IMG/VR virus record: IMGVR_UViG_3300037808_002146
Origin: a virus
Lineage: Duplodnaviria; Caudoviricetes
DNA: 64,000 nt
Reading direction: 5' to 3' (one strand)
In this document: piece by piece, positions 920 through 24,567 of the stretch
How positions within the stretch are numbered: the first letter of the stretch is position 1
How the letters are laid out: every line of letters starts with the position of its first letter
Notes under the pieces: generated by a model
What the model saw: only the letters and a program-made list of their open reading frames with translations
What the model was told of the DNA's origin: nothing
Databases searched by the model: none
Program-made: the position numbers and the translations under genes

Positions 920-1898
920 TAGTACTCCACCAAGCTATAGTTTTATCCAAACCCTCCCTTAAATCTACTTTACTAGTAAAACCTAAGATTTCTCTAGATT
1001 TAGAAATTTCAGCTCTCGTATGCCTAACATCCCCAACTCTCTCTGGGGCATTTATTATCTTTATTTCAAACCTCTCCCTAAGCAAATCAAGTATATCATT
1101 ATTACTATAACTTTTGCCAGTTCCTATATTAAAAATATCGCCTGAAAATTTTGCTTTGTTTAGCGAAGCGATAATATTAGAATCTACAATATCACCAACA
1201 TATACCATATCACGAGTTTGTTCACCGTCGCCGTCGCTTCTGAGTGGCTGTAACCTTTTAATTTTATCCATCCAAGCTGATATTGCTGTAGAATATGGGC
1301 TGTCGCCTAACTGCCCTGGTCCATAAGCATTAAAGTACCTTAAGCAAACGCTGTCTAAGTCGTAAAGCTTCGAGTAAAGAGAACAATAATCTTCGACTAT
1401 TCTTTTTTGAAGTGCATATGGAGATTCAGGGTTAGTCTCTCCGGATTCTATAGATGGAAAATTATCTAAAGAGTTACCATAAATCGCAGATGAGCTACTA
1501 AACACAAACCTTTTAACGTTATCGATGCAAGCTGTCATAAGCAAGACTGATTTTGTAACATTCTGTTCTGTTGTTACAACCGGATTTTTTACAGAATACT
1601 CAACCCTTGGTAATGCTGCTAAGTGGAAAATTATATCGTATTTTTTTTCCGCAATCCTCGATAAAATCTGAGGAGCTGCAAAATCTCCCGTGATTACCAA
1701 AGTTTTATTAGAGTCTTTAGAAGAATCATATCTAGCTAGTAGTCCTGGAGTTATAACCCTAATATCTATAGAAGAGATGTTATCTATGTCTCCATTGGAG
1801 AGATCATCTACAACGTCTACTCTCCACCCTAGATTCACCAGTTTTTTAGTTAGGTTAGAACCAATAAAACCACACCCGCCGGTAACTAAAGCTCTCAT
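909..1898 (-). CDS. NAD-dependent NDP-sugar epimerase/dehydratase (extended SDR, GalE/WbpP-like)
   Basis: VTGGCGFIGS Rossmann motif, HLAA, FSSSSAIYG, catalytic YALQK (YxxxK), LRYFNAYGP, GDGEQTRD. Confidence 0.92.
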   Translation of the reverse strand: MRALVTGGCGFIGSNLTKKLVNLGWRVDVVDDLSNGDIDNISSIDIRVITPGLLARYDSSKDSNKTLVITGDFAAPQILSRIAEKKYDIIFHLAALPRVEYSVKNPVVTTEQNVTKSVLLMTACIDNVKRFVFSSSSAIYGNSLDNFPSIESGETNPESPYALQKRIVEDYCSLYSKLYDLDSVCLRYFNAYGPGQLGDSPYSTAISAWMDKIKRLQPLRSDGDGEQTRDMVYVGDIVDSNIIASLNKAKFSGDIFNIGTGKSYSNNDILDLLRERFEIKIINAPERVGDVRHTRAEISKSREILGFTSKVDLREGLDKTIAWWSTNEE

Positions 1899-3052
1899 AG
1901 TTCTCCCGAAGTTGTCTTTATGTTATCTTGTCTATAATTGGAAAAACCAGAATCTTCTAACTCTCCATGGAGATATTTTATTACTTCGTATGTCATATCT
2001 CTCGCGGTGCAAGTTGGAACATTTTGAGCTACATCATTTAATCTCTTGGTTTGAAGATTAAAGTCAGATGGAAGTCCCATTAGGTGCATTATCTCTCTAT
2101 GACTCATCCCTCGGGGTTGGGTAGGGTGCATTATCATTTGCAAAGTTCTTCCAACTATTGCGTTAGTACATGAATTATAAAAAGCTGGAGAATGATCTAA
2201 AAAACTTTTCCCCATAGACAGCTTGTTTTTGATGTGTTCAAATTTTCTAACTTCTTTGTGTTCTGGGTTGTGTGTTGTAAGCCACTCTAAACATTCATCA
2301 ATCAATTCGTTTCGTACGATAAATTGGTGAATTGAGTGAGCTGGACCAGAACCAAACTCGCCGATAAAGTCTTTATGCGAAAACCCATATTTTTCAAGCA
2401 AAAAAGTGTAAGAAGGGAATTTTTCAAAAATATTGTTTATATTGTATAAGTCTTGTTGTTTTGAACTGCCAGGAATTTTTCCTAAATAATCAATCAAATT
2501 ATCGTGCTCCCTATCATACCAATTCATAATCGGAGCATTTTTCGAATCCCAAAAAAAATAAAATGTTCGCAGCCTCTTTTGAGGAATCCCATGCTTGAAT
2601 GTCGAAGTTCTATATATTGAAAAAGAGTATCCATTATCTTCAGCGATTTGCTTAAGCTGCTCTCTAACGCTATTTCCTGATTTTGTATAAAGGGCTGGAG
2701 CATTTTCTCCCCAGTAAACCTTTGGCCTAAGTTGCTCTAAAACTAGTTTCGATGTTTTCATCATCCAAACATTTTGGCTATCTCTAGTTGACCGATCTTG
2801 ACTGGTATTCAGTTGACTCAATCCCGCACAAGGGCAAACTGAGTTGACAAAATCTAAATTATCTTCTGGCAAAATAGATTCGTCTAAGTCGATTCTCCTA
2901 ACATTAGGCCAGTAGTTAACTAAGTGGTTTTCGTTTTGCTCAAAAGCCTTAAAGCTCAAATGAAACTTGGGTAAGTTTCCAGTTGCTTGGCTACATCCTA
3001 TCGCAGATCCGCCTATTAACGGGATCATAGTAGCCCAAGATATATCACTCAT
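1895..3052 (-). CDS. C5-cytosine DNA methyltransferase-fold protein with atypical motif I
   Basis: Catalytic PC motif IV (VCPCAGLS), motif VI (WGENAP), motif VIII (HGIPQKRLRTFY), motif IX/X (MGLP...AQNVP). Motif I reads IPLIGG instead of FxGxGG. Confidence 0.75.
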   Translation of the reverse strand: MSDISWATMIPLIGGSAIGCSQATGNLPKFHLSFKAFEQNENHLVNYWPNVRRIDLDESILPEDNLDFVNSVCPCAGLSQLNTSQDRSTRDSQNVWMMKTSKLVLEQLRPKVYWGENAPALYTKSGNSVREQLKQIAEDNGYSFSIYRTSTFKHGIPQKRLRTFYFFWDSKNAPIMNWYDREHDNLIDYLGKIPGSSKQQDLYNINNIFEKFPSYTFLLEKYGFSHKDFIGEFGSGPAHSIHQFIVRNELIDECLEWLTTHNPEHKEVRKFEHIKNKLSMGKSFLDHSPAFYNSCTNAIVGRTLQMIMHPTQPRGMSHREIMHLMGLPSDFNLQTKRLNDVAQNVPTCTARDMTYEVIKYLHGELEDSGFSNYRQDNIKTTSGEL

Positions 3053-4446
3053 TTTTTTCTCCTAACCCTCTTTTGCTTGTAACAAGCAAACTCTCTACGA
3101 GCTTTCTTCTCGAAGAAACATAACGATTGATTTGTAACTTGTTTAATACCAACAGCTGGGATTTTTCCTTGTTCGATTATCTTGAGGTAGTCTTCAAAAA
3201 CTCTTTCGCTTTGAAAGAGGTGGGTGAGCATCTCTTTGTCATTTGTGAATTTGTTGTTGTCTTTTCCAGCCTTTAGAATATAGTCAAACATTTCTGGCAA
3301 AACGTTGTCAGCGTTAAACTCTCTATCGATAAAATCAAAACTAGAATCCCTGTATTTTTGTTGCTCTAACGGGTTGTTAGCAATTGATATTAGTTTATCC
3401 GCTGTTTCTCCCAAGTCGTCTCGAGAAGACCAAACAGCTAGATAGTCGTTATCGATGTACTTACTCCCGTTGGAATCAGTGTTATGTTCTCCATAGTGTT
3501 TATCAAAAACAGGAATAGTTCCACATCCTATAATTTCGATTTGTGTATACTCCATCCTATCGCCATAGTTGTGTGGTTCTTTTGGTAGCCGGTAAAAAGA
3601 GCAGCCAAATAAAGAGGTGGAGATTAGATCCATACCGTCAGCATAATCATACGGGCCAAAAGTGGGAACTCCATCAAGATCCCAGTCATAATTTTCAAAC
3701 TTCAAATTATAGATAGAATTTGGGTGATCTATAATATCGAACTTAGCCCCAATAGAGCGTTCAATACCGTGAAGAGCTAAACGAAAAGATGGATCTTTTT
3801 CTTTCATTATAGGATATAAATCTAAAACGCGGCGAGGATCCTTCATAGAAGTCCAGCGACCTACGTAAGTTAGTTTTCGTTCCTTTTCATTTAAGCTAAA
3901 TTTATCCCTATAATTTTTCTTTAATTCAGATAAATCTACCCACATTTTGAATCTCTTTGTTCTTTCCCCTAAGACTTTGCTGGGCAAATATGAGGAAAAC
4001 TCTTTTGAAAAGAAAGTTTTTTCCGAGAAATTATAAACAATATCACAGTAATTTAGAATAGGGATAATCATCGGAATAGCATCGATATTAGCTTTTTTAA
4101 TTTCGTGCATCATTCCAACCAAGACTGGTTTTTTAATCTTTTTAACTAAACCCTCATAAAAAGACATCACTGCTTGAGGAGAATGCTTAGAGGAGGGATA
4201 AGAGTTGAGAATAACTGTATCATATTCGCGGTTTAGCTTCTCAACCAGAGAGGGGATCTCTGTATGCTTAAACTCAATTGGCTCAATTGGCATAGAGTGC
4301 CCTTTAGCTCTAGCAAAGCTTCGTCCTTTCATAAAAAATATATCAAATTTGACATCATTCCTTTGCGCCCAAGTAGCAATCTCAACTGCTCCTCTTTGAA
4401 CGCCACAGCCATCAAGCCCTTTGCCAAAAATCATAGCAATTTTCAT
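3049..4446 (-). CDS. agt: DNA alpha-glycosyltransferase, T4 Agt-like (GT-B fold)
   Basis: Collinear matches to T4 alpha-glucosyltransferase as recalled: GKGLDGCGV (ARGLEGCGV), LNSYPS (INSVPA), MHE (QHD), YVGRWTSMK (WIGRTTTWK), HGIERS (EGLERS), MEYTQIEIIGCGTIPVFDK (LEYTHLELGACGTIPVFWK). Confidence 0.85.
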   Translation of the reverse strand: MKIAMIFGKGLDGCGVQRGAVEIATWAQRNDVKFDIFFMKGRSFARAKGHSMPIEPIEFKHTEIPSLVEKLNREYDTVILNSYPSSKHSPQAVMSFYEGLVKKIKKPVLVGMMHEIKKANIDAIPMIIPILNYCDIVYNFSEKTFFSKEFSSYLPSKVLGERTKRFKMWVDLSELKKNYRDKFSLNEKERKLTYVGRWTSMKDPRRVLDLYPIMKEKDPSFRLALHGIERSIGAKFDIIDHPNSIYNLKFENYDWDLDGVPTFGPYDYADGMDLISTSLFGCSFYRLPKEPHNYGDRMEYTQIEIIGCGTIPVFDKHYGEHNTDSNGSKYIDNDYLAVWSSRDDLGETADKLISIANNPLEQQKYRDSSFDFIDREFNADNVLPEMFDYILKAGKDNNKFTNDKEMLTHLFQSERVFEDYLKIIEQGKIPAVGIKQVTNQSLCFFEKKARREFACYKQKRVRRKK

Positions 4447-4898
4447 TTATTTTTTCTCCCCGTTTTTAAGACTCTTTCCCTCAACTGCGTAGTAGAGAAA
4501 GAATGCCTCCTATTATTATAATGGATAGGACATAAGTCAACGCCTGTATGGTTTGTGCCTTTGTACTCTTCTCCAACTACCCTAATGTCTGGGTTTATTG
4601 TCAAGATTACATCAACTAAATCTTTTTCAGAACCAAATGGAATTATTTCATCTACATATTTGCATGCAGCTAACTGCAAATATCTTTCCATAATACTTTG
4701 AATTGGCTTATTCTTTATTTCTGGACGATCGTTTGTAGGATCTGTCAAGAGTCCTACGATCAAGTAATCACAAAGCGATTTACTTTCCTGCAGCATCACA
4801 ACATGTCCAGCATGGAATAAGTCGAAAGTAGAACACGTAAAACCAACAATCGGATCTCTTCCCAAGCTTTCTGCTAGTTTCTTTTTATCTAAAAACAA
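4443..4898 (-). CDS. cytidylyltransferase-family nucleotidyltransferase (TagD/RfaE-II-like)
   Basis: FTCSTFDLFHAGH (HxGH), LIVGL, CKYVDEI, C-terminal FSTTQLR. Small single-domain size. Confidence 0.88.
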   Translation of the reverse strand: MFLDKKKLAESLGRDPIVGFTCSTFDLFHAGHVVMLQESKSLCDYLIVGLLTDPTNDRPEIKNKPIQSIMERYLQLAACKYVDEIIPFGSEKDLVDVILTINPDIRVVGEEYKGTNHTGVDLCPIHYNNRRHSFSTTQLRERVLKTGRKNK

Positions 4899-5973
4899 TT
4901 TTTACTTCCTTGAAAATATCTTGAATTCTTTTTCTTACAAGGCTTTTTTGGTTTTCGGGCTTATACTTTAGCATTCTGATATAATGAATCATCTCGCACA
5001 ATAAGAAATACCTAGAAAAATTAGGTTTAAATAACCCAAGTAGATGACTAAAAAGATCCTCTTTATCAACTTTAGCTTCAAAACCAGAAAAACTTTCTTC
5101 GTAAGAAGAGTGTAAAGATTGATATATCTTTCCAACGTCCATAACCCAAGAACTATATACATTTCCTGGACAATTAGGGTCTATGAGGTATACTTTTTCA
5201 CCTCTAACGATGCAATTTTCAAAAGTAAGATCTCCATGAGAAAAGCTAGCTTCGATATTCATAAAATCAGCAACTTGATCGCTTTCTAAGAGTTTAATAA
5301 TATCACTTTCGTTTCTTACAGCGTTTAAAGACATATGATCTTTAACACGATCAACCATAGTTTGCCAATTGCTGTTAGTAACTTTTATATCACTAAACCT
5401 TGTTAGCAAATCTACCAAATAATCTATGTGCTCTTTGGTGCATACATCATTTAAGCTAACTCCGTCCAAGAACTCCATGTCCAAAGTATCTCCATAATAA
5501 GTATTAACTTTTGGAACATGACATAAACTACCAGCTGAATTATACCAGTGTGCTTGGTCTTTAGCGTTGCTAGCTTTTTTGATGATTCTATCACCAACTT
5601 TCTCTACAGAGCCTCCCGATCCACCTTTTAAGACTTCATAGTCTAAATCCATAAATTCCTCTGGGCGGATTGCTTTATCGTCGATGTAGTATACCCCGAT
5701 TGGTTTTCCAAACATCAAACTGTGATACTTCACGCTGTGTTTCTCCATCCAAGACTCTAAAACTGGTCGACGAAGCTGGTTTATTAAGTCTAAGTCTCCG
5801 CTACATGAAACCTGTCCTCGAGCGGTAAAATATATAATTTTCCAACCCGATTCATACATCTTGTTAAGTTTGTTGATAATTTTAGTATGAGGAACTGCAT
5901 TTTCATAATCACGATTCCGATGTGTAGATATCGTGTCATCAACATCGACGACTAGAGTTCGTGTTTCTACCAT
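4885..5973 (-). CDS. fusion of a short HAD phosphatase and an APH/choline-kinase-like phosphotransferase (start revised to ATG 5973, 362 aa)
   Basis: HAD motifs VVDVDDT, YFTARG, FGKP and YYIDDKA, then kinase motifs HGDLTFEN and LIDPN. The ATG overlaps the dut stop codon (TAATG). Confidence 0.8.
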   Translation of the reverse strand: MVETRTLVVDVDDTISTHRNRDYENAVPHTKIINKLNKMYESGWKIIYFTARGQVSCSGDLDLINQLRRPVLESWMEKHSVKYHSLMFGKPIGVYYIDDKAIRPEEFMDLDYEVLKGGSGGSVEKVGDRIIKKASNAKDQAHWYNSAGSLCHVPKVNTYYGDTLDMEFLDGVSLNDVCTKEHIDYLVDLLTRFSDIKVTNSNWQTMVDRVKDHMSLNAVRNESDIIKLLESDQVADFMNIEASFSHGDLTFENCIVRGEKVYLIDPNCPGNVYSSWVMDVGKIYQSLHSSYEESFSGFEAKVDKEDLFSHLLGLFKPNFSRYFLLCEMIHYIRMLKYKPENQKSLVRKRIQDIFKEVKIVFR

Positions 5974-6410
5974 TAAATTACTCCTGTACTCCCAAAACCA
6001 CCTTCGCCTCTTTGGGAATTTACACAAAATAAATCCTCAATGCAAACTTCCTCGATAGAATCGTAAAAAACTGGAACTAAAATCATTTGTACTAGTTTTT
6101 CACCAGCACAAATAGTTTCTGCTTTGTTTCCAAAATTGTAAACATGGAGATGGATTTCACCTTGATAGTCTTCATCTACGATACATGCGCCAACGGATAA
6201 ACTTCTCTTTAAAGCAACCCCGCTTTTATTAAAAACTATTAAAGCAAACCCATTAGGTACGTTCGCTTTTACGCCACTAGGAATGCAAGCTGAGTTTCCT
6301 GGTTCAACGACAAAATTTTCAAAATCGTTAGGGACAAAGAAATCTATACCGGCAGATTTTTCAGTTCCCCTAATTGGGGTTTTTACATCTTTAATTTTAG
6401 AAATCTTCAC
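5973..6410 (-). CDS. dut: trimeric dUTPase (start revised to GTG 6410)
   Basis: Motifs SAGIDF, NKSG, IVDEDYQGEI, EKLVQMI, RGEGGFGSTG. The GTG has an upstream GAGG and overlaps the previous stop (GTGA). Confidence 0.93.
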   Translation of the reverse strand: MKISKIKDVKTPIRGTEKSAGIDFFVPNDFENFVVEPGNSACIPSGVKANVPNGFALIVFNKSGVALKRSLSVGACIVDEDYQGEIHLHVYNFGNKAETICAGEKLVQMILVPVFYDSIEEVCIEDLFCVNSQRGEGGFGSTGVI

Positions 6411-6685
6411 AGTTTTTCCTCTTTTATAAAATTGTGCCAAGCGCCTAAATAGGCAACAGCATCTAACAAATTGTCATCTTTGAAATTATAAGATTGGCGG
6501 CTTAGTTTGAGGGCAACAAGTGATATATACATATCATGAGCTGTAATATCCTTTCCGGACATGCCTCTAGCGATACTAGCAGCTCTTTGCATCCCTTCAC
6601 CAAAAGGTCCATACTCTCTTTCTTTTTCTTCAGATCTTTCGTTGACGATTTGATTTGCTTGCTTTAAGATATTGTCTTTATTCAT
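6407..6685 (-). CDS. small all-alpha protein, DUF6378-like, possible nucleotide pyrophosphohydrolase (start revised to ATG 6685, 92 aa)
   Basis: ILKQANQIVNERSEEKEREYGPF, LVALKLSR and DNLLDAVAY resemble phage DUF6378-type helical proteins. It lies between the TS homologue and dut. Confidence 0.5.
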   Translation of the reverse strand: MNKDNILKQANQIVNERSEEKEREYGPFGEGMQRAASIARGMSGKDITAHDMYISLVALKLSRQSYNFKDDNLLDAVAYLGAWHNFIKEEKL

Positions 6686-7508
6686 CACTAAAAATTTCTC
6701 CACTGCAGTTTTTAACATAATCGTATATTTCAGCTTTTTCAACCTCTGCGATAGGAAAAGAAAAATTTTCATTAATCAACTTCCAGTTAACGTTACTGTT
6801 CAATCTACAAGTATCTAATCCTTTGTCAACATTAAAGTCACTACTATTTATACTTTCAATCATTTTGTAATGCTTTTCATAAACATGCAAGCTACCAGCG
6901 TAGTGAAAGTAACTCCCTAGTTCTAAGCTCATGCCAGTTTCGTTTAGTTCATTCAACATAAGCTGCTGAAATAGCGAAAAGGTGAAAACATCGTTACACA
7001 AACCGAAAATTAAATCGTTAGATCTCATATTAACGCCTAGGTGGAGTTTATTATCCCTAACGAAAAACTGAATATAGTGCGTGCAAGGATAGTCTTTTGA
7101 ATTCTTGAACTTATGATAAGGTTGATTTATCACAAAAGTTGCACGGCGAGTATCTCGATCAATTATAATCTCGTTTTTCACCCAGTTCCATTGCGGTTTT
7201 AGATAGACTCCATAATTGGATTCAACTTCGCAAAATTGATCTGAAATCATTTTCCATATTTTAGCTAATTTCCCGATATTTAAGGAAGAAGAATTAGCAG
7301 ACAAGTACCACATCCACTCTGCTATGGCATAATTTTTGTTAAATTTTCTCTCTGGTAGCGTAACGTTAATACGCGTAGGATCTGAAATTTCAAAGCTTTG
7401 GAATATCACTTCCTTTTGTTTGGAGTTTCTTGCATTCACTTCAGGAGAATCTAGTAAAACAGAGCTATAGTGTTTTAGTAGATGGTTTATAGAGTTAAAT
7501 TTATTCAT
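6678..7508 (-). CDS. thymidylate-synthase-family enzyme, dCMP hydroxymethylase-like (T4 gp42 type)
   Basis: Catalytic Glu (IAEWMWY) and Cys (YPCTHYIQF), then MRSNDLIFGLCND and GSLHVY. Asp occupies the position where dUMP enzymes have Asn (E. coli ThyA N177), as in T4 gp42 (RSNDVVFGFRND). Confidence 0.8.
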   Translation of the reverse strand: MNKFNSINHLLKHYSSVLLDSPEVNARNSKQKEVIFQSFEISDPTRINVTLPERKFNKNYAIAEWMWYLSANSSSLNIGKLAKIWKMISDQFCEVESNYGVYLKPQWNWVKNEIIIDRDTRRATFVINQPYHKFKNSKDYPCTHYIQFFVRDNKLHLGVNMRSNDLIFGLCNDVFTFSLFQQLMLNELNETGMSLELGSYFHYAGSLHVYEKHYKMIESINSSDFNVDKGLDTCRLNSNVNWKLINENFSFPIAEVEKAEIYDYVKNCSGEIFSDE

Positions 7509-7513
7509 GTAAT

Positions 7514-7542
7514 ATTATACTTCAAAAATCTTAATTTTTCTA
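7514..7542 (-). promoter_or_regulatory. sigma70-like promoter TAGAAA-N17-TATAAT, 5 nt before the ATG of the modification operon (likely leaderless mRNA)
   Basis: Embedded in the dnaE 3' end. No Shine-Dalgarno sequence fits between TATAAT and the ATG at 7508. Confidence 0.55.
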
Positions 7543-10500
7543 AATTGAGTTGAAAAGCCAAAATCAGACTTATCAAGTTCGGCAACACAAAGTGAGTAAG
7601 GATTCAAAATAGAATCTTCTTTCGTACCCCAACAGAATACCCTATTTTTTTCCCCATTAGATCCTATAGCATCTAAAAGAAAGTAAGGCTTATTGTTTTT
7701 AGTTTTCTTTTTATTAACCTTAGTAGCTACTAGCCAATAAAGATTTTTTTGATTCCACTCTTCTATAGGGAGGATAGATAACTCTTCAAACCTGCTAGAT
7801 AACTTTTCAGGAATTAAATTACCAACATTTATAGTTCCAAGTAAAGATTCTTCAAACTCCATATTTTCTTTAATGCTCCAGTCTTCACTCGGGTAATTTA
7901 GAGAAACTTCGTTCAAATTGTCTCTTCCTTGAAAAGGATTCTTTTTAGTGCTCTTTCTTAATGCTGGCCAATTTTCGCTAACACATTCGTAGAATTGCTT
8001 GTAAGATTCAAAATAACCTTGCCAATCTAGGGAATCCAGTGCTCTAATCTTCAGGAGAGATTCGAGAGTCTTTTTATTTAATTTTGAGTGTTTCCACTTG
8101 CCATCTTCATTCCAGAGCAGATCATCAATATTTTCATAAGGTCGGTTGTTAAGTATCTCTTCAATAGCTGCCTCGCCTATGCCTTTACAGGAAAAGAAAG
8201 ATGGCATCAAAACCTTATCGTCGACTGGTGTCCAATTTTTTCCAGCTTTATTAAGGTCAATATTTGTTGTCGTGTATCCCAACTTTTTAACTTCACTCAA
8301 TGCTTTGGAAAGCTTGTTTGGATTAGACGAAACTGCTTCGAGGTAAGCGGTTATCCATTCAGCCTCGTAGTAAGTCATTAGCCAAGCGCAATAGTACGAA
8401 TTTATAGCATAAGAAACAGCATGTGACTTATTGAAACCGTAGCCAGCAAAATACAAAATCTTCTCGTAGAGATCTTCGGCGACGTGCTTTTGAACTCCAT
8501 TAGAAATAGATCCGGCAAGGAACTTATCTTTAAGATCTCGAGCTTTTTCGATATTTTCATTTCCAGAACCAACAGGCTTCATCATCTTACGCATTGCGTT
8601 ACATTCGTCTTTCGGGATACCCGCGACGACATGACATAAGTTCATGACTTGCTCTTGAAAGATTATACAACCATAAGTTTCTTTCAAACATTCTTCAATA
8701 AGCGGATGGCCATAAACTACACTTTCTGGATTCTTTTTTGCTCCAATATAAAGTTTATCTACCTTAGCACTCAGCGGGCCAGGACGGTATATAGACGTCA
8801 GAGTTGCGATATCTATTATTGATTCTGGTTTAGCACGCTTAAAGAGGGCTTGAGCGCCCCTCTGCGTGCACTGGAATATAGCAGCCCACTTTCCAGAATG
8901 ATAGACATTTTTATAAACTTTTTGATCGTTAAAATCAATTTCTTTAGTTGACATATTGACATCGAACCATTTTTTCACTTGTTGAAAATCTGGATTTTCA
9001 ATACCCTCTTTCTTAAGAACCAGTCTAATAGTTTGCTCAATTATTCTCAAAGTTTCTAATCCAAGCAAATCAAACTTAATCCACCCAAACTCTTCTAAAT
9101 GCTTATAGTTCATACCTTCAACCCACGGAGTTTGAACTTCTCCACGAGCTAAAATTACAGGCATCCTCTCGGCAATTCTTTCTGAAATTATAACACCACC
9201 AGCGTGGCGACCGAGAGCTTTGTTTTGCTTGAATAAAACCTTTAGAGGATCAAGTATTTCTGGATACTTTTCTAAATAGTTCTTCAAAGATTCTGAGTAC
9301 TTTAAAGCTTCATCAATATGAATATCGAAAGAATCTTCTGATTCTGCATCGTTCTTCCGTCCTCTCTTTACATCTACTTCCAATGGAGCTAAAGCTTTGT
9401 TTGCTTCTTCGAATGGGACTCTATAAAACCTCGAAACGTCCTTAATCAATGACTTCAACTTAAAGGTGTTATAATTCGAAATTGGTACAACATTTGATTC
9501 TCCAAAGTTATCCCTTAATAAAGATATTAACTCGTCACGGTCTCCTACATCAGAATCGATGTCTGGCATTTCGTTTCTCTCTGGAGATAAAAATCTTTCA
9601 AAAAGCAAACCGTTAGAAACTGGATCAACATCCGTGATTCCTAAAGCGTAATTCACCAAACTACCCGCGCCAGAGCCTCTGCCCGGGCCGATGAGCATTT
9701 TTTCTCGCGCAATATCGAGGATAGCTTTCATCGTTAGAAAATATTCGGAAAAATTCTTGCTTTTTATAACCACGAACTCTTCTCTCAATCTCTCAATATA
9801 GATAGGGTTTTCATGTAGACCTCGATCTATCAAGCCTTTCTTACAAAAATCTAAAAGAGCTTGAGTTGCTGTTTTTCCTTTAGGGATTACATAAGATGGT
9901 AATTTCATGCTTCGATCTGGGTTGATGTCTCCAATCTCGTCGTGGACTATGTTGTATGGACGTTCAATAGCTTCGCAAATTATTTGATCGTCGTAAAAAT
10001 CCATGTCAGAAGTTGTACTTAAGTAAGAATCCCACACTTGCTCTGCGTTTTTTGGATAAAGTTCGCAAGAAAGATCGCTTTGAGATTTAGGTAAAGAGTC
10101 TGGATCAAAGTCTCTGAAGTTAAGCCAGCCAAGCTTTTTGTATATTTCTCTTTCCCTCCAGTGTTCCGGGCGAGCGTAATGTGAATCTGTCGTAACTACC
10201 AACTTGTCTGTTAAACCTTGAGATTTTGCAAATTCAATTATAGATCTATTGACCAAGTGCTGAGCCGGAAGCTTGTTAAACTGTAACTCTAACATTACGT
10301 CGTCTATTCCGACGGAATCTACCAAGCCTTGATATGCATTTCCTACGCCATTCATAACTTTGCTTCGAAAAGAGTTATCATCTAAGAGTGTATGACTAAG
10401 ATCGTTAAACTCTACTTGTTGGGCATGCCTAAAAACTTCATAAGCGATTGGGCCGCCTATACATGCAGTAGAAACCATCAAATGACCTCCTTCGGCGGCT

Positions 10501-11096
10501 TCTTTTAACATCTTATAGTCAATCCTAGGAAATCTATAGAAACCTTCTAGGTAACCTTTAGAGACTAAGTTAAAAAGCCTAGACAAGCCTTCTGATGTTT
10601 TTGGAAGGACAACCAAGTGGTGACGCCTCTTGACAGGATCATAAAACTTTGCTGATTTTGATTCTTCCTCGTTTTCAATAGTCAAACTTCCTTCGTCCGT
10701 AGAGAGTTCTACCGTTTCATCGTCTCCATCTACTTTGGCGAACAGTGGAGTTCTAATTCTCTCTCTTTGTTCTCTAAGCTTTAGAATAGACTCTTTGTCG
10801 CCTTTCTTTGCAGCTTTAGCTAATTCATAATCCAGATTCCAAATATCTAGATTTGGGTGAACATACATTTCACATCCGGGGACAAACTTAAAATTACCTC
10901 CACGCTTTTTAATTTTCTCTGCATGCAAGAAAGCGTGAGCAAAACTGTTCATGTGACCATGATTAGTGAGACACCAGCTATCCATCCCGTTTTCTAAAAC
11001 AAAATCTATGTGTTCTTGTGGATATCCCAAGCCATCGAAGGTTGAAAAACCATCATGTGCATGGAGGGAGGTAAACTTTTTTGGAACAATTTTCAT
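7515..11096 (-). CDS. dnaE: DNA polymerase III alpha subunit (family C, DnaE-like)
   Basis: PHP domain (LHAH, TNHG, GCEMY, HHL, STAC, TDSHY), GPGRGSGAGS, catalytic PDIDSD and KFDLLGL, YGFNKSHA, HhH and OB fold. The protein ends after the OB fold. Confidence 0.96.
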   Translation of the reverse strand: MKIVPKKFTSLHAHDGFSTFDGLGYPQEHIDFVLENGMDSWCLTNHGHMNSFAHAFLHAEKIKKRGGNFKFVPGCEMYVHPNLDIWNLDYELAKAAKKGDKESILKLREQRERIRTPLFAKVDGDDETVELSTDEGSLTIENEEESKSAKFYDPVKRRHHLVVLPKTSEGLSRLFNLVSKGYLEGFYRFPRIDYKMLKEAAEGGHLMVSTACIGGPIAYEVFRHAQQVEFNDLSHTLLDDNSFRSKVMNGVGNAYQGLVDSVGIDDVMLELQFNKLPAQHLVNRSIIEFAKSQGLTDKLVVTTDSHYARPEHWREREIYKKLGWLNFRDFDPDSLPKSQSDLSCELYPKNAEQVWDSYLSTTSDMDFYDDQIICEAIERPYNIVHDEIGDINPDRSMKLPSYVIPKGKTATQALLDFCKKGLIDRGLHENPIYIERLREEFVVIKSKNFSEYFLTMKAILDIAREKMLIGPGRGSGAGSLVNYALGITDVDPVSNGLLFERFLSPERNEMPDIDSDVGDRDELISLLRDNFGESNVVPISNYNTFKLKSLIKDVSRFYRVPFEEANKALAPLEVDVKRGRKNDAESEDSFDIHIDEALKYSESLKNYLEKYPEILDPLKVLFKQNKALGRHAGGVIISERIAERMPVILARGEVQTPWVEGMNYKHLEEFGWIKFDLLGLETLRIIEQTIRLVLKKEGIENPDFQQVKKWFDVNMSTKEIDFNDQKVYKNVYHSGKWAAIFQCTQRGAQALFKRAKPESIIDIATLTSIYRPGPLSAKVDKLYIGAKKNPESVVYGHPLIEECLKETYGCIIFQEQVMNLCHVVAGIPKDECNAMRKMMKPVGSGNENIEKARDLKDKFLAGSISNGVQKHVAEDLYEKILYFAGYGFNKSHAVSYAINSYYCAWLMTYYEAEWITAYLEAVSSNPNKLSKALSEVKKLGYTTTNIDLNKAGKNWTPVDDKVLMPSFFSCKGIGEAAIEEILNNRPYENIDDLLWNEDGKWKHSKLNKKTLESLLKIRALDSLDWQGYFESYKQFYECVSENWPALRKSTKKNPFQGRDNLNEVSLNYPSEDWSIKENMEFEESLLGTINVGNLIPEKLSSRFEELSILPIEEWNQKNLYWLVATKVNKKKTKNNKPYFLLDAIGSNGEKNRVFCWGTKEDSILNPYSLCVAELDKSDFGFSTQFRKIKIFEV

Positions 11097-12123: not shown

Positions 12124-12930
12124 TCACCTTTGAATTTCTGGTACCCAGTGTGTTGTTCTCCCATCGGGAGTTTTATCTTTAATAACTTCATTCCCGTCTG
12201 GATCTTGCTTTTGGTTATACACTAAAAATCTAGAACTGAAATTTCCTACTTCTCCATAAAAATCTTTGTAAGATTTTATTGTAGCTCCGCCTGTTTTGAA
12301 AGATTCTCTCATTACCGACTTTATAGTCTTGTTAAGAATCTGTAAATTTGTATCTGAAATGTCTCTTACTTTTCGAAAGGGGCTAATCCTAGCTAGATAA
12401 AGAGATTCTGATTTAATATAGTTTCCAACGCCAGCAATTACCGATTGATCCATTAAAGCTTTAGTAATGTTTTGTTCTTCTTTTTTTCTTAATGATAGAA
12501 CAAAATCATCGTTGCTAACATCTTCCGATAGCATGTCTGGCCCGAAAGAAGATAGCTTAGCGGATAATTGCTTTGGATCCTGAGAGAGTTTAATAGTTCC
12601 AAAATTTCTCATATCGTTAAAATAGACGCGTTTCCCAGTATCGAAAGTGAAAGACAGCCTTGTATGTTTAGATTCTTTACTCTGCCAAGCCCCCGACATA
12701 CCTAAAGTTGACCACATGCTACTTTTATCTTCAAAAATTACATATATAAATTTTCCATGAACGCCTACGCCTTTTACTTTAGAAGGCAATTTTTCCTTAA
12801 AACTATTTAGATTAGGTAGTTCTTTTTTCAAATACCTTCCTGAAACTACTTCAACCGCAGTTAAAGTTTCCCCACCAATATAGTCTCCTAAAAAAAGGGC
12901 GTACCTCCTGCATTCGGGTCCTTCAGGCAT
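12124..12930 (-). CDS. Fpg/Nei-family DNA glycosylase/AP lyase with zincless finger
   Basis: N-terminal PEGPE, HGK, H2TH motif LMDQSVIAGVGNYIKSESLY. The C-terminus has no Cys4 finger but keeps the conserved Arg (GRTTHWVPEIQ). Confidence 0.92.
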   Translation of the reverse strand: MPEGPECRRYALFLGDYIGGETLTAVEVVSGRYLKKELPNLNSFKEKLPSKVKGVGVHGKFIYVIFEDKSSMWSTLGMSGAWQSKESKHTRLSFTFDTGKRVYFNDMRNFGTIKLSQDPKQLSAKLSSFGPDMLSEDVSNDDFVLSLRKKEEQNITKALMDQSVIAGVGNYIKSESLYLARISPFRKVRDISDTNLQILNKTIKSVMRESFKTGGATIKSYKDFYGEVGNFSSRFLVYNQKQDPDGNEVIKDKTPDGRTTHWVPEIQR

Positions 12931-22913: not shown

Positions 22914-23413
22914 TAATCATCCCAAGTCTTTTTGTTTCCTTGATATATTATAATCGCTCCTGAATTGTTTTCAACTTGAATCAAGGAACTAACTTTTAAC
23001 AAGCCAGCATTTTGCGACCCAATTAATGTATGGTAGATATATTTGACACCATCACGAGAGCTAATTTCTGAAGTTTTTACTTTTAATCCCGACTTAGCGC
23101 CTCTAGTAACTTGGGAAAGACCAGTATAAACTTTTTTCATAGTCTCCGTGCCAACAAAAGCTTGACGTAATATATTTTTTATTTTTTCCATATCGTCAAC
23201 TCCAGTAGCTGATGATATCTTTAAGTTCTTCATAAGCTGCTTTGGATCCTCCGCGGCTAGTGCGCCGGCTTCTTTTACACCAGTGGAGAAACGACCGCTG
23301 CCAGTAGAGGCCTCTATTCCAGCTTTACTCTTTTTTTCCGGCTTCGCAACTGTCTTCTCTTCTTTTTCTTCAGTAAGAATATCTCGAATAATATCTTTTG
23401 TTGAAACTTTCAT
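22913..23413 (-). CDS. hypothetical protein (166 aa)
   Basis: N-terminal KDIIRDILTEE motif, Lys/Gly-rich. Coupled to both neighbours. Confidence 0.7.
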   Translation of the reverse strand: MKVSTKDIIRDILTEEKEEKTVAKPEKKSKAGIEASTGSGRFSTGVKEAGALAAEDPKQLMKNLKISSATGVDDMEKIKNILRQAFVGTETMKKVYTGLSQVTRGAKSGLKVKTSEISSRDGVKYIYHTLIGSQNAGLLKVSSLIQVENNSGAIIIYQGNKKTWDD

Positions 23414-24567
23414 ATAATATCACACTCCAAATAAAAATGTCCAATGTCAGGAATATCTACGCCTTCTTTAACTATTTTACAAACTTCTTCTAAATCAAAA
23501 TTATTAACGTCTGCGACCAAAGCATCGTGGACTACCGCTAAGGGTTTGAAAGAGCTTGGCATTTTTTTAGATATTTTAGAAAACCCAAAAAGAGAAACAT
23601 CAACCCCCGTACTTTGAATAAAGTTATTTACTGCTATGTTAGCTGTATTCCTTTTTAAAGTAATTGGTCTTCCAAAATAGTTCTTTATTTTACCCGACTT
23701 AAAATCTCCTGTTTTTTTCAAAATAGATTTCAAATCGAAATATTCATCAATAGCTTTCTTTATTATAATAGCTTCTTTTCCGACAATCTCAGTTAGCTTA
23801 GATATCCCGGCACCAAAAAGCGTTGAAAGAACCGCTGCTTTTACTTTTTTTCGGCTATAAGTAAGCTTATATTCTTCTATTATGTCGTTGTATATGTCTT
23901 CTTTAGCAGAGTTTGAAGTCATCAGCTTTGCTAATCTAGGCTCTAAAGAGACAAAATCAATCCACAAAATCTTTCCATTCTCGTATCTGCTTTTAAATAT
24001 GTTTTTCATTTCACGTGGTAATAGCAAAACCTGCGGACCTGATTTCACAACTAGCCTCCCGGTGACTGTTTTAAATCTATTGTACTCTATACGAGAAGTT
24101 AATCCATCTTTTTGTGGTCGAAACGATTGGATTGTTTTGCTAACAGTAGCATTCTCTATAGATTTTTTTAATAAATTTTCATTTGGGCAAAATCGGTTTA
24201 AGTTCTGGAGAATTTCATTTCCTTCAGAAAAAATATTAGAGTACCTATTTGTAGTTACTCCTTTCATATTTTTCAAAAAAGCGTGTAAGTCATCTATTTT
24301 TTTAGAGTATATCCTGGTAGGTAAAACGTGCTTCCAAGGAGGATTAGAAGATCCTACGGAAAGCATCATCCTGCGGTGCTTTTCCTCGATGAATTCTAGA
24401 GGCTCAAAATCGTATAAAGATAAGTAATCATTTAAGGTATTATGCTTATTGATATCTAAGAACAAATCAAAGTTTGAATCAAGATCATCATGCCAAGAGT
24501 ATTCTTCGTTGTTTAGAACTAGGTATTGGCCATTACTAAAGATATTTTTGTCTATCATAATTTTCAT
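23410..24567 (-). CDS. short family-A DNA polymerase-like protein (palm and fingers, little thumb)
   Basis: TVTGRL, motif A IDFVSLEPRL, motif B RKKVKAAVLSTLFG, motif 6 AVNNFIQSTGVD, motif C VVHDALV. Confidence 0.78.
   Translation of the reverse strand: MKIMIDKNIFSNGQYLVLNNEEYSWHDDLDSNFDLFLDINKHNTLNDYLSLYDFEPLEFIEEKHRRMMLSVGSSNPPWKHVLPTRIYSKKIDDLHAFLKNMKGVTTNRYSNIFSEGNEILQNLNRFCPNENLLKKSIENATVSKTIQSFRPQKDGLTSRIEYNRFKTVTGRLVVKSGPQVLLLPREMKNIFKSRYENGKILWIDFVSLEPRLAKLMTSNSAKEDIYNDIIEEYKLTYSRKKVKAAVLSTLFGAGISKLTEIVGKEAIIIKKAIDEYFDLKSILKKTGDFKSGKIKNYFGRPITLKRNTANIAVNNFIQSTGVDVSLFGFSKISKKMPSSFKPLAVVHDALVADVNNFDLEEVCKIVKEGVDIPDIGHFYLECDII

Follow-up and report, generated by a model that had tools for sequence, protein, structure and literature searches.

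DNA cytosine-C5 methyltransferases (C5-MTases) such as M.HhaI, M.HaeIII and the catalytic domain of DNMT1 share a two-lobed fold, a Pro-Cys motif, the Glu of motif VI, a QxRxR motif, motif IX and a recognition insert. In vitro, C5-MTases without S-adenosylmethionine (SAM) carry out aldehyde addition, removal of the hydroxymethyl group from 5-hydroxymethylcytosine (hmC) and thiol coupling to hmC, which provides a chemical precedent for this fold acting on hmC through a C6 adduct. Pathways that make hmC before replication have been regarded as complete with transferases, a kinase, pool-control enzymes and a thymidylate synthase (TS) homologue. Here, we describe a further gene in a cassette of this kind, referred to as methyltransferase-like (MT-like), located at 1895-3052 on the minus strand of a 64-kb stretch of DNA (the window) of the IMG/VR virus record IMGVR_UViG_3300037808_002146. 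The window belongs to a 209-kb contig of a marine phage, and the gene encodes a protein of 385 amino acids (P0001).

C5-MTase folds are known from other phage systems. In marine metaviromes, clusters encoding a C5-MT, a TET (5mYOX) protein and a glycosyltransferase (GT) place the C5-MT gene beside GT, epimerase and CTP-transferase genes, as a step toward glycosylated hmC (Burke et al. 2021; PMC8256090), and the C5-MTs of these clusters methylate DNA in E. coli (PMC8256090). TET clusters make hmC post-replication via TET, whereas the cassette of the window has a gp42-type TS, and no TET was found in the searched phage loci or in the scanned open reading frames (ORFs) of the window, where Tet_JBP gave no match, the sensitivity for diverged phage TETs being limited. 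CmoX of Synechococcus phage S-B43 (PDB 8yf3) is a DNA cytosine C5-carboxymethyltransferase (PMC12783734) that also has a phage C5-MTase fold, with a donor specificity altered at the motif X position, and gives hypermodification a handle on the base. In CmoX, the contacts to adenosine through Phe, Glu and Asp are retained; it has an SPPC motif and Arg350, and needs CmoA, whereas the MT-like protein appears to be without these features.

The MT-like protein matched PF00145 from residue 50 onward only (E = 2e-16; 60.8 bits versus a cut-off of 22). The AlphaFold2 model, for which 149 homologues served as input, had a mean predicted local distance difference test (pLDDT) of 96.2 and a predicted template modelling score (pTM) of 0.93. 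Its structural matches, in the PDB and in AlphaFold DB clusters, were exclusively C5-MTases: the best PDB matches found by Foldseek were MET1, DNMT1, M.HaeIII, M.HhaI and CmoX (E of about 1e-13 to 1e-14, probability 1.0), and the cluster matches were generic C5-MTases with 12-18% identity. The model, Foldseek and Pfam agreed on a class I methyltransferase fold with a small recognition domain, and we are confident that the protein has, as modelled, the C5-MTase fold that a preliminary description of this DNA had proposed from its letters. The target-recognition region was complete and, compared with canonical C5-MTases, mostly helical. Identity to these enzymes was only 12-16%, and HMMER never aligned the first 50-60 residues. 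Likewise, PDB searches with the sequence or the family profile aligned motifs IV-VIII and IX-X, and never the first 60 residues. No near-identical DNA was found in the phage collection.

The catalytic motifs were present, as confirmed by a check of the letters (all on the minus strand). Motif IV reads CPCAGLS (2816-2836) and contains the catalytic Cys75, followed by Ala76 at the position of the canonical Gln (PCQ). Motif VI reads ENA (2699-2707; Glu116) instead of ENV, motif VIII reads QKRLR (2567-2581; Arg160 and Arg162), and motif IX corresponds to R..S.RE..HLMGLP.DF (2060-2113). Motif X reads AQNVP (2015-2029) in place of GN(A/S)VP, so that, when anchored on VP, the canonical Asn corresponds to Gln343. 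Finally, both the letters and a profile alignment placed IPLIGG (3008-3025, residues 10-15) at motif I, replacing FxGxGG. The retained PC, EN(A) and QxRxR motifs and the odd motif I reported in the preliminary description were thus found again letter for letter, and three further donor-site changes can be added to those listed there: PCQ to PCA, the motif X Asn to Gln, and the apparent absence of the motif II acid. The protein therefore lacks the FxGxGG SAM loop, the PCQ Gln and the GN(A/S)V Asn of PF00145 enzymes.

Residue conservation was determined in 149 diverse family members. Cys75, Glu116, Arg160 and Arg162 were found in 100% of them. In motif I, Pro11 (98%), Leu12 (98%), Gly14 (100%) and Gly15 (99%) were almost as constant, with Ile, Val or Gln at position 10. 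Position 34, located right after strand 2 in the usual place of the ribose-binding Glu, was Tyr, Phe or Trp in 92% of members; Asn40 (94%) and Asp/Glu41 (95%) lie one helical turn beyond it, and positions 35 and 38 were variable. On the basis of the profile alignment and the secondary structure of the model, no acid appears to be present at the motif II position. Position 76 was Ala (78%), Ser (16%) or Gly (4%) and never Gln, Ala118 was kept in 97%, Gln343 in 97%, Asn344 in 95%, and Asp57 in 69% of members. When aligned by profile with a canonical phage methylase (FCGAGG ... AVEKE ... GDI ... PPCQGFS ... IGNALPP), Ile10 took the place of the motif I Phe, Leu12 that of its first Gly, and Gln343 that of the Asn of motif X; the N-terminal part of this alignment is of low confidence, yet it matches the limits of the strands and helices in the model.

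Overall, five donor-site positions (10, 12, 34, 76 and 343) were, according to the alignment, replaced family-wide by other, conserved residues; in M.HhaI or CmoX, the residues at these positions surround the cofactor and the group to be transferred. Gln82 and Asn304 of M.HhaI border the transferable group, and the Q82A substitution reduces methylation roughly 16-fold, with a preference for larger groups (PMC3526304), while CmoX has at the same Asn position an Arg that selects carboxy-SAM (PMC12783734). Since the replacements are themselves conserved, the donor site appears, from these alignments, to have been rebuilt and then conserved rather than simply to have decayed.

A word-indexed search returned 859 homologues, nearly all of them marine metagenomic, and an exhaustive search among cluster representatives at 50% identity returned 834 matches, 296 of which had an E-value below 1e-30. 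Among isolates, relatives were found in Bacillus phage G, Pseudoalteromonas phage XG4 and the S-TIM5 group of cyanophages. A pattern scan of 185,579 species genomes gave 16 confirmed loci, all on contigs of metagenome-assembled genomes and none in an isolate cellular genome, with TS-to-MT synteny in 13 of the 16. The family occurred only on phage-like DNA, and no member was found, as in a restriction-modification system, in a cellular genome beside a restriction endonuclease gene. Within the DNA cytosine-C5 methyltransferase fold, the family forms a large branch that is confined to viruses and, unlike the canonical enzymes, has no restriction partner. We found no paper assigning a function to this xPLIGG clade, and nothing specific in the literature on DNA modification in S-TIM5 or on SAM-independent phage methyltransferases.

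The branch is a constant part of cassettes that begin with a gp42-type TS gene and carry a DNA transferase; its gene is most often the last of the cassette and in most cases directly follows that of the transferase. Metagenomic loci came from six metagenome contigs and from IMG/VR, in two sets with 80 loci each, and linkage was counted in the 111 loci with at least 5 kb upstream. The recurring order was the TS gene first, then a few small genes, a transferase of 370-520 amino acids, often an epimerase, and the MT-like gene last. A TS homologue was present within the locus in 79 of these 111 loci, a member of one of three transferase families was found no more than 4 kb upstream of the MT-like gene in 83, and an epimerase gene was adjacent to it in 47. 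Loci without a TS gene belonged mostly to one PolB-type lineage, in which an Asp-type TS was encoded further along the contig in two of the three larger records. Each isolate genome carrying a relative also encoded an Asp-type TS homologue, belonging to the same cluster in S-TIM54 and XG4 and located elsewhere on the same record in Bacillus phage G; no counter-example, that is, an MT-like gene without such a TS, was found in the three isolate lineages checked. The preliminary description had named orthologues in phages without gp42 or Agt genes, together with ordinary SAM-dependent behaviour, as evidence that would speak against its view; the orthologues found in the isolates and in about 175 metagenomic loci instead accompany Asp-type TS genes. 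Pool-control genes found in the operons encoded a dUTPase, a PRA-PH/MazG-like protein and a dCMP deaminase.

The nearest structure in the viral library was gp301 of Bacillus phage G (template modelling score 0.80, root-mean-square deviation 3.8 Å, 21% identity). This protein shares CPC(S/A)GLSQ(I/L)N and AQ.VP with the MT-like protein and is also without the first Gly of motif I, but it differs by a very long branch in the tree and by its motif I, FIFGGS. Its gene lies near two alpha-glucosyltransferase genes, sugar-nucleotide genes, a thymidylyltransferase gene, a HAD gene, a divergent TS homologue of the Asp type and an Fpg gene.

In the window, the TS homologue (P0126; 6678-7508, minus strand) is a predicted dCMP hydroxymethylase of the gp42 type, with T4 dCMP hydroxymethylase as its best PDB match (1b49; E = 2e-20). 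It has an Asp at the position of T4 D179, equivalent to E. coli N177, which sets cytosine specificity, and it keeps the Asp at the position of E. coli D169. According to diagnostic-residue criteria, 5-hydroxy-dCMP synthases have an Asn at the latter position (PMC13326640), and this activity was ruled out for the TS gene of the window because of the retained Asp. Among TS homologues of the Asp type there are also dCMP methylases (bioRxiv 2024.12.05.627091). Hydroxymethylation is nevertheless the likelier product predicted for the TS of the window, because its D-x-x-C-T active-site context is gp42-like and because the GT needs a hydroxyl. Among the 47 TS homologues listed, all had Asp at both diagnostic positions, except two canonical TS genes and one truncated ORF. 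The protein annotated as 'ThyA' in cyanophage S-TIM54 (L001 5129-5971), encoded beside the MT-like gene, combines the PCH active site of a true TS with an Asp at the N177 position, and may methylate dCMP instead of hydroxymethylating it. The transferase of the window (3049-4446, minus strand) is an AGT-like DNA glycosyltransferase of the T4 alpha-glucosyltransferase family (PF11440, E = 1.3e-9; phrog_2888, E = 3.8e-98). With the TS and this enzyme as neighbours, the operon context put forward in the preliminary description was borne out. The MT-like gene is connected by ATGA stop/start overlaps to the upstream AGT-like gene, at the stop of the latter, and to the downstream epimerase gene, at the start of the latter.

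Three kinds of upstream partners were observed: AGT-like proteins, GTs resembling the T4 beta-glucosyltransferase, placed by a protein-language search, and proteins with the helical domain of 5-hmdU-DNA kinases (HMUDK_hel), resembling amino-acid:DNA transferases. Profile comparison did not show kinship between the three families, and PHROGs gave them no function. In a maximum-likelihood tree of 88 MT-like proteins, the well-supported branches imply that the three partner labels switched no fewer than 7, 10 and 4 times. Since the type of transferase changed repeatedly while the MT-like gene stayed, the role of the latter appears to be independent of which group is attached. In the closest relatives of the phage of the window (L003 5150-10001; L005; L013; L197 5622-11670), the TS, DUF6378, dUTPase, MT-like, epimerase and thymidine kinase genes were kept, and the block encoding the AGT, the cytidylyltransferase and the HAD-kinase was replaced by genes for an inositol-1-phosphate synthase, a Methyltransf_21 protein and an HMUDK_hel protein. 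This swapped set suggests a different cytosine hypermodification.

Some relatives were duplicated, fused or extended. Two contigs carried tandem MT-like paralogues (L040 9968-12384 and L042 9977-12413), whose catalytic cores are 64% identical and whose recognition regions are 27% identical. On one contig (L197 9001-11670), a single ORF of 889 amino acids (P0277) joined an HMUDK_hel protein to an MT-like protein; this fusion may be an assembly or sequencing indel. Long relatives of 680-1462 amino acids (P0233, P0134, P0128 and P0278-P0293; loci L007 and L008) were found on short contigs, with low-complexity tails. One of these has a CXXC finger, and another has a C2H2 finger ahead of the MT-like part and a TET/JBP-like domain after it (GCS.S.Y.G..CKF-type and H.H.D motifs). 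When used as a query against the first 90 or so loci, the TET part of P0233 found P0233 alone. The long relatives look eukaryotic or giant-viral, and the form of 1462 amino acids nests within a phage clade of the tree.

On the basis of the sequences and the model, we propose, with a probability of about 0.5, that the MT-like protein is a catalytically competent enzyme that depends on the hmC pathway and performs a non-canonical C5 chemistry on phage DNA. The enzyme would flip a cytosine-type base of the phage DNA after replication and add Cys75 to C6 of the flipped base; its rebuilt donor pocket would not perform the ordinary transfer from SAM that yields 5-methylcytosine (5mC), and the reaction would depend on the hmC pathway. 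Any C5-MTase could fill gaps in cytosine replacement; from the existence of a dedicated clade travelling with the cassettes, we infer a substrate or a donor that depends on the pathway. It is possible, although tentative, that the enzyme acts on hmC or its conjugates, where addition to C6 would labilise the 5-CH2-O bond, by analogy with C5-MTases in vitro without SAM. A transfer of a non-methyl group, such as hydroxymethyl from a non-SAM donor, onto cytosines that escaped replacement seems more doubtful. As for a natural, SAM-independent enzyme of this fold that would exchange or remove the substituent of hmC (or of a conjugate) in DNA through a Cys-C6 adduct, we consider it unlikely.

Several points weigh against the proposed non-canonical chemistry. 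We know of no natural SAM-independent enzyme with a C5-MTase fold, and the side reactions described above were seen only in vitro with ordinary, SAM-deprived methyltransferases, whereas a dedicated natural enzyme is proposed here. The reading of the donor pocket is drawn from the profile alignment and the secondary structure of the model, with residue equivalences in the N-terminal 60 residues that depend on the low-confidence part of the alignment, and the retained GG of motif I, Asp57 (69%) and Asn344 would allow an atypical SAM pose. Full replacement of cytosine in the phage of the window is an assumption, and it is not obvious what an extra step would add, since hmC can be decorated by the transferases on their own. 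Finally, the tandem paralogues look, by their sequences, like ordinary sequence-specific methylases, and the simplest reading of the TET/JBP and CXXC fusions is that the MT-like domain makes 5mC.

These last observations lead to the alternative of a SAM-dependent orphan C5-methyltransferase that would methylate, after replication, the cytosines that escaped replacement, resulting in a mixed 5mC/glycosyl-hmC genome. We regard this as possible, at a clearly lower level than even odds. All catalytic motifs and the full target-recognition region are present, Asn344 and the GG of motif I show little or no variation, Asp57 is frequent, and the divergence of the L040 and L042 paralogues, stronger in the recognition region than in the core, is as expected for two sequence specificities. 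Moreover, relatives are fused to TET/JBP and CXXC domains, the C5-MTs of TET clusters, which have similar GT, epimerase and CTP-transferase neighbours, are active in E. coli (PMC8256090), and a role independent of the type of transferase is consistent with the tree. However, motif I has lost its Phe and its first Gly throughout the family, as the PCQ Gln, the motif X Asn and, by the alignment, the motif II acid have also been replaced; Q82A alone costs M.HhaI about 16-fold in methylation, and the pool-control genes of the operons (dUTPase, PRA-PH/MazG-like protein and dCMP deaminase) favour a thorough replacement. The non-canonical chemistry is favoured because a methylase explains neither the conserved replacement of the donor site nor a separate clade that travels with gp42-type TS cassettes and is absent from isolate cellular genomes.

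A non-enzymatic or off-DNA role, as a base-flipping reader, an accessory of the transferase, or a Dnmt2-like protein acting on RNA or nucleotides, appears improbable. The position of the gene directly after the transferase gene, with a stop/start overlap, and the HMUDK_hel-MT-like fusion would fit an accessory, and Dnmt2 is a precedent for a C5-MTase fold able to act on tRNA. However, the invariance of Cys75, Glu116, Arg160 and Arg162 argues for catalysis on the cytosine ring, the partner family varies (AGT-like, beta-GT-like or HMUDK_hel-like), which is at odds with one co-evolved complex, and the fusion comes from a single contig and could be an indel. A prediction of the complex of the AGT-like GT and the MT-like protein with SAM returned no answer (score 0.00) and is evidence neither way. 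A CmoX-type carboxymethyl transfer from carboxy-SAM, with 5-carboxymethylcytosine as product, is extremely unlikely. CmoX (PDB 8yf3) was among the Foldseek matches and shows that phage C5-MTase folds can switch donor (PMC12783734), but the MT-like protein has CPCA and Gln343/Asn344 in place of SPPC and Arg350, and its membership of the CmoX group was rejected on these defining residues. In addition, neither CmoA nor an amide ligase was seen in the window operon or the related loci examined, with no CmoA-like gene in the annotated parts of the window.

The long ORFs of the first 31 kb of the window are all on the minus strand. From upstream to downstream, the block that contains the MT-like gene encodes the TS homologue, a DUF6378 protein (6407-6772), a trimeric-type dUTPase (5973-6440), a protein with a HAD phosphatase-like N-terminal part and a kinase-like C-terminal part in one ORF (4885-6027), a cytidylyltransferase-like nucleotidyltransferase (4443-4898), the AGT-like GT, the MT-like protein, an NAD-dependent sugar-nucleotide epimerase/dehydratase (909-1898) and, as the last gene of the co-directional block, a thymidine kinase (335-919), all on the minus strand. 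The DUF6378 protein had no match among solved structures, and a role in the nucleotide pool is a guess. The kinase-like part of the HAD fusion, recognised by an HGD...N...D motif in its sequence, resembles aminoglycoside/choline kinases; the fusion protein probably feeds a sugar-1-phosphate to the cytidylyltransferase-like enzyme.

Immediately before this block, relative to transcription, we found genes for DnaE, Fpg, ClpP, RNR, DnaB, FEN, RecA, gp32-like and PolA-like proteins, with T4-like structural genes further along the window. A DnaE of bacterial type (Pol III alpha) and a short protein resembling PolA are thus encoded by the same phage as a T4-like baseplate, tail tube and prohead protease (7515-11096, 23410-24567 and 36525-58779). 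A full DNA glycosylase of the Fpg/Nei type, which is unusual for phages, is encoded a few kb from the cassette (12124-12930, minus strand), as it is in phage G (gp292; L096 383-1228) and in three related loci.

The MT-like gene represents a further, very common gene in the hmC cassettes of marine and other viromes, with at least 834 matching clusters at 50% identity. If its product is a methylase, many phage genomes would combine two cytosine-masking routes, which would affect how restriction systems, CRISPR and sequencing chemistries perceive these genomes. If it performs another chemistry, the reactivity with aldehydes or hmC known from methyltransferases in vitro would have its first natural example, which would also serve as a new tool for labelling DNA and point to a possible role of the TET-fused relatives of plankton eukaryotes. 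Should the SAM-independent exchange or removal of hmC substituents prove true, the relatives fused to TET/JBP or CXXC domains would be candidates for the direct enzymatic reversal of oxidised 5mC.

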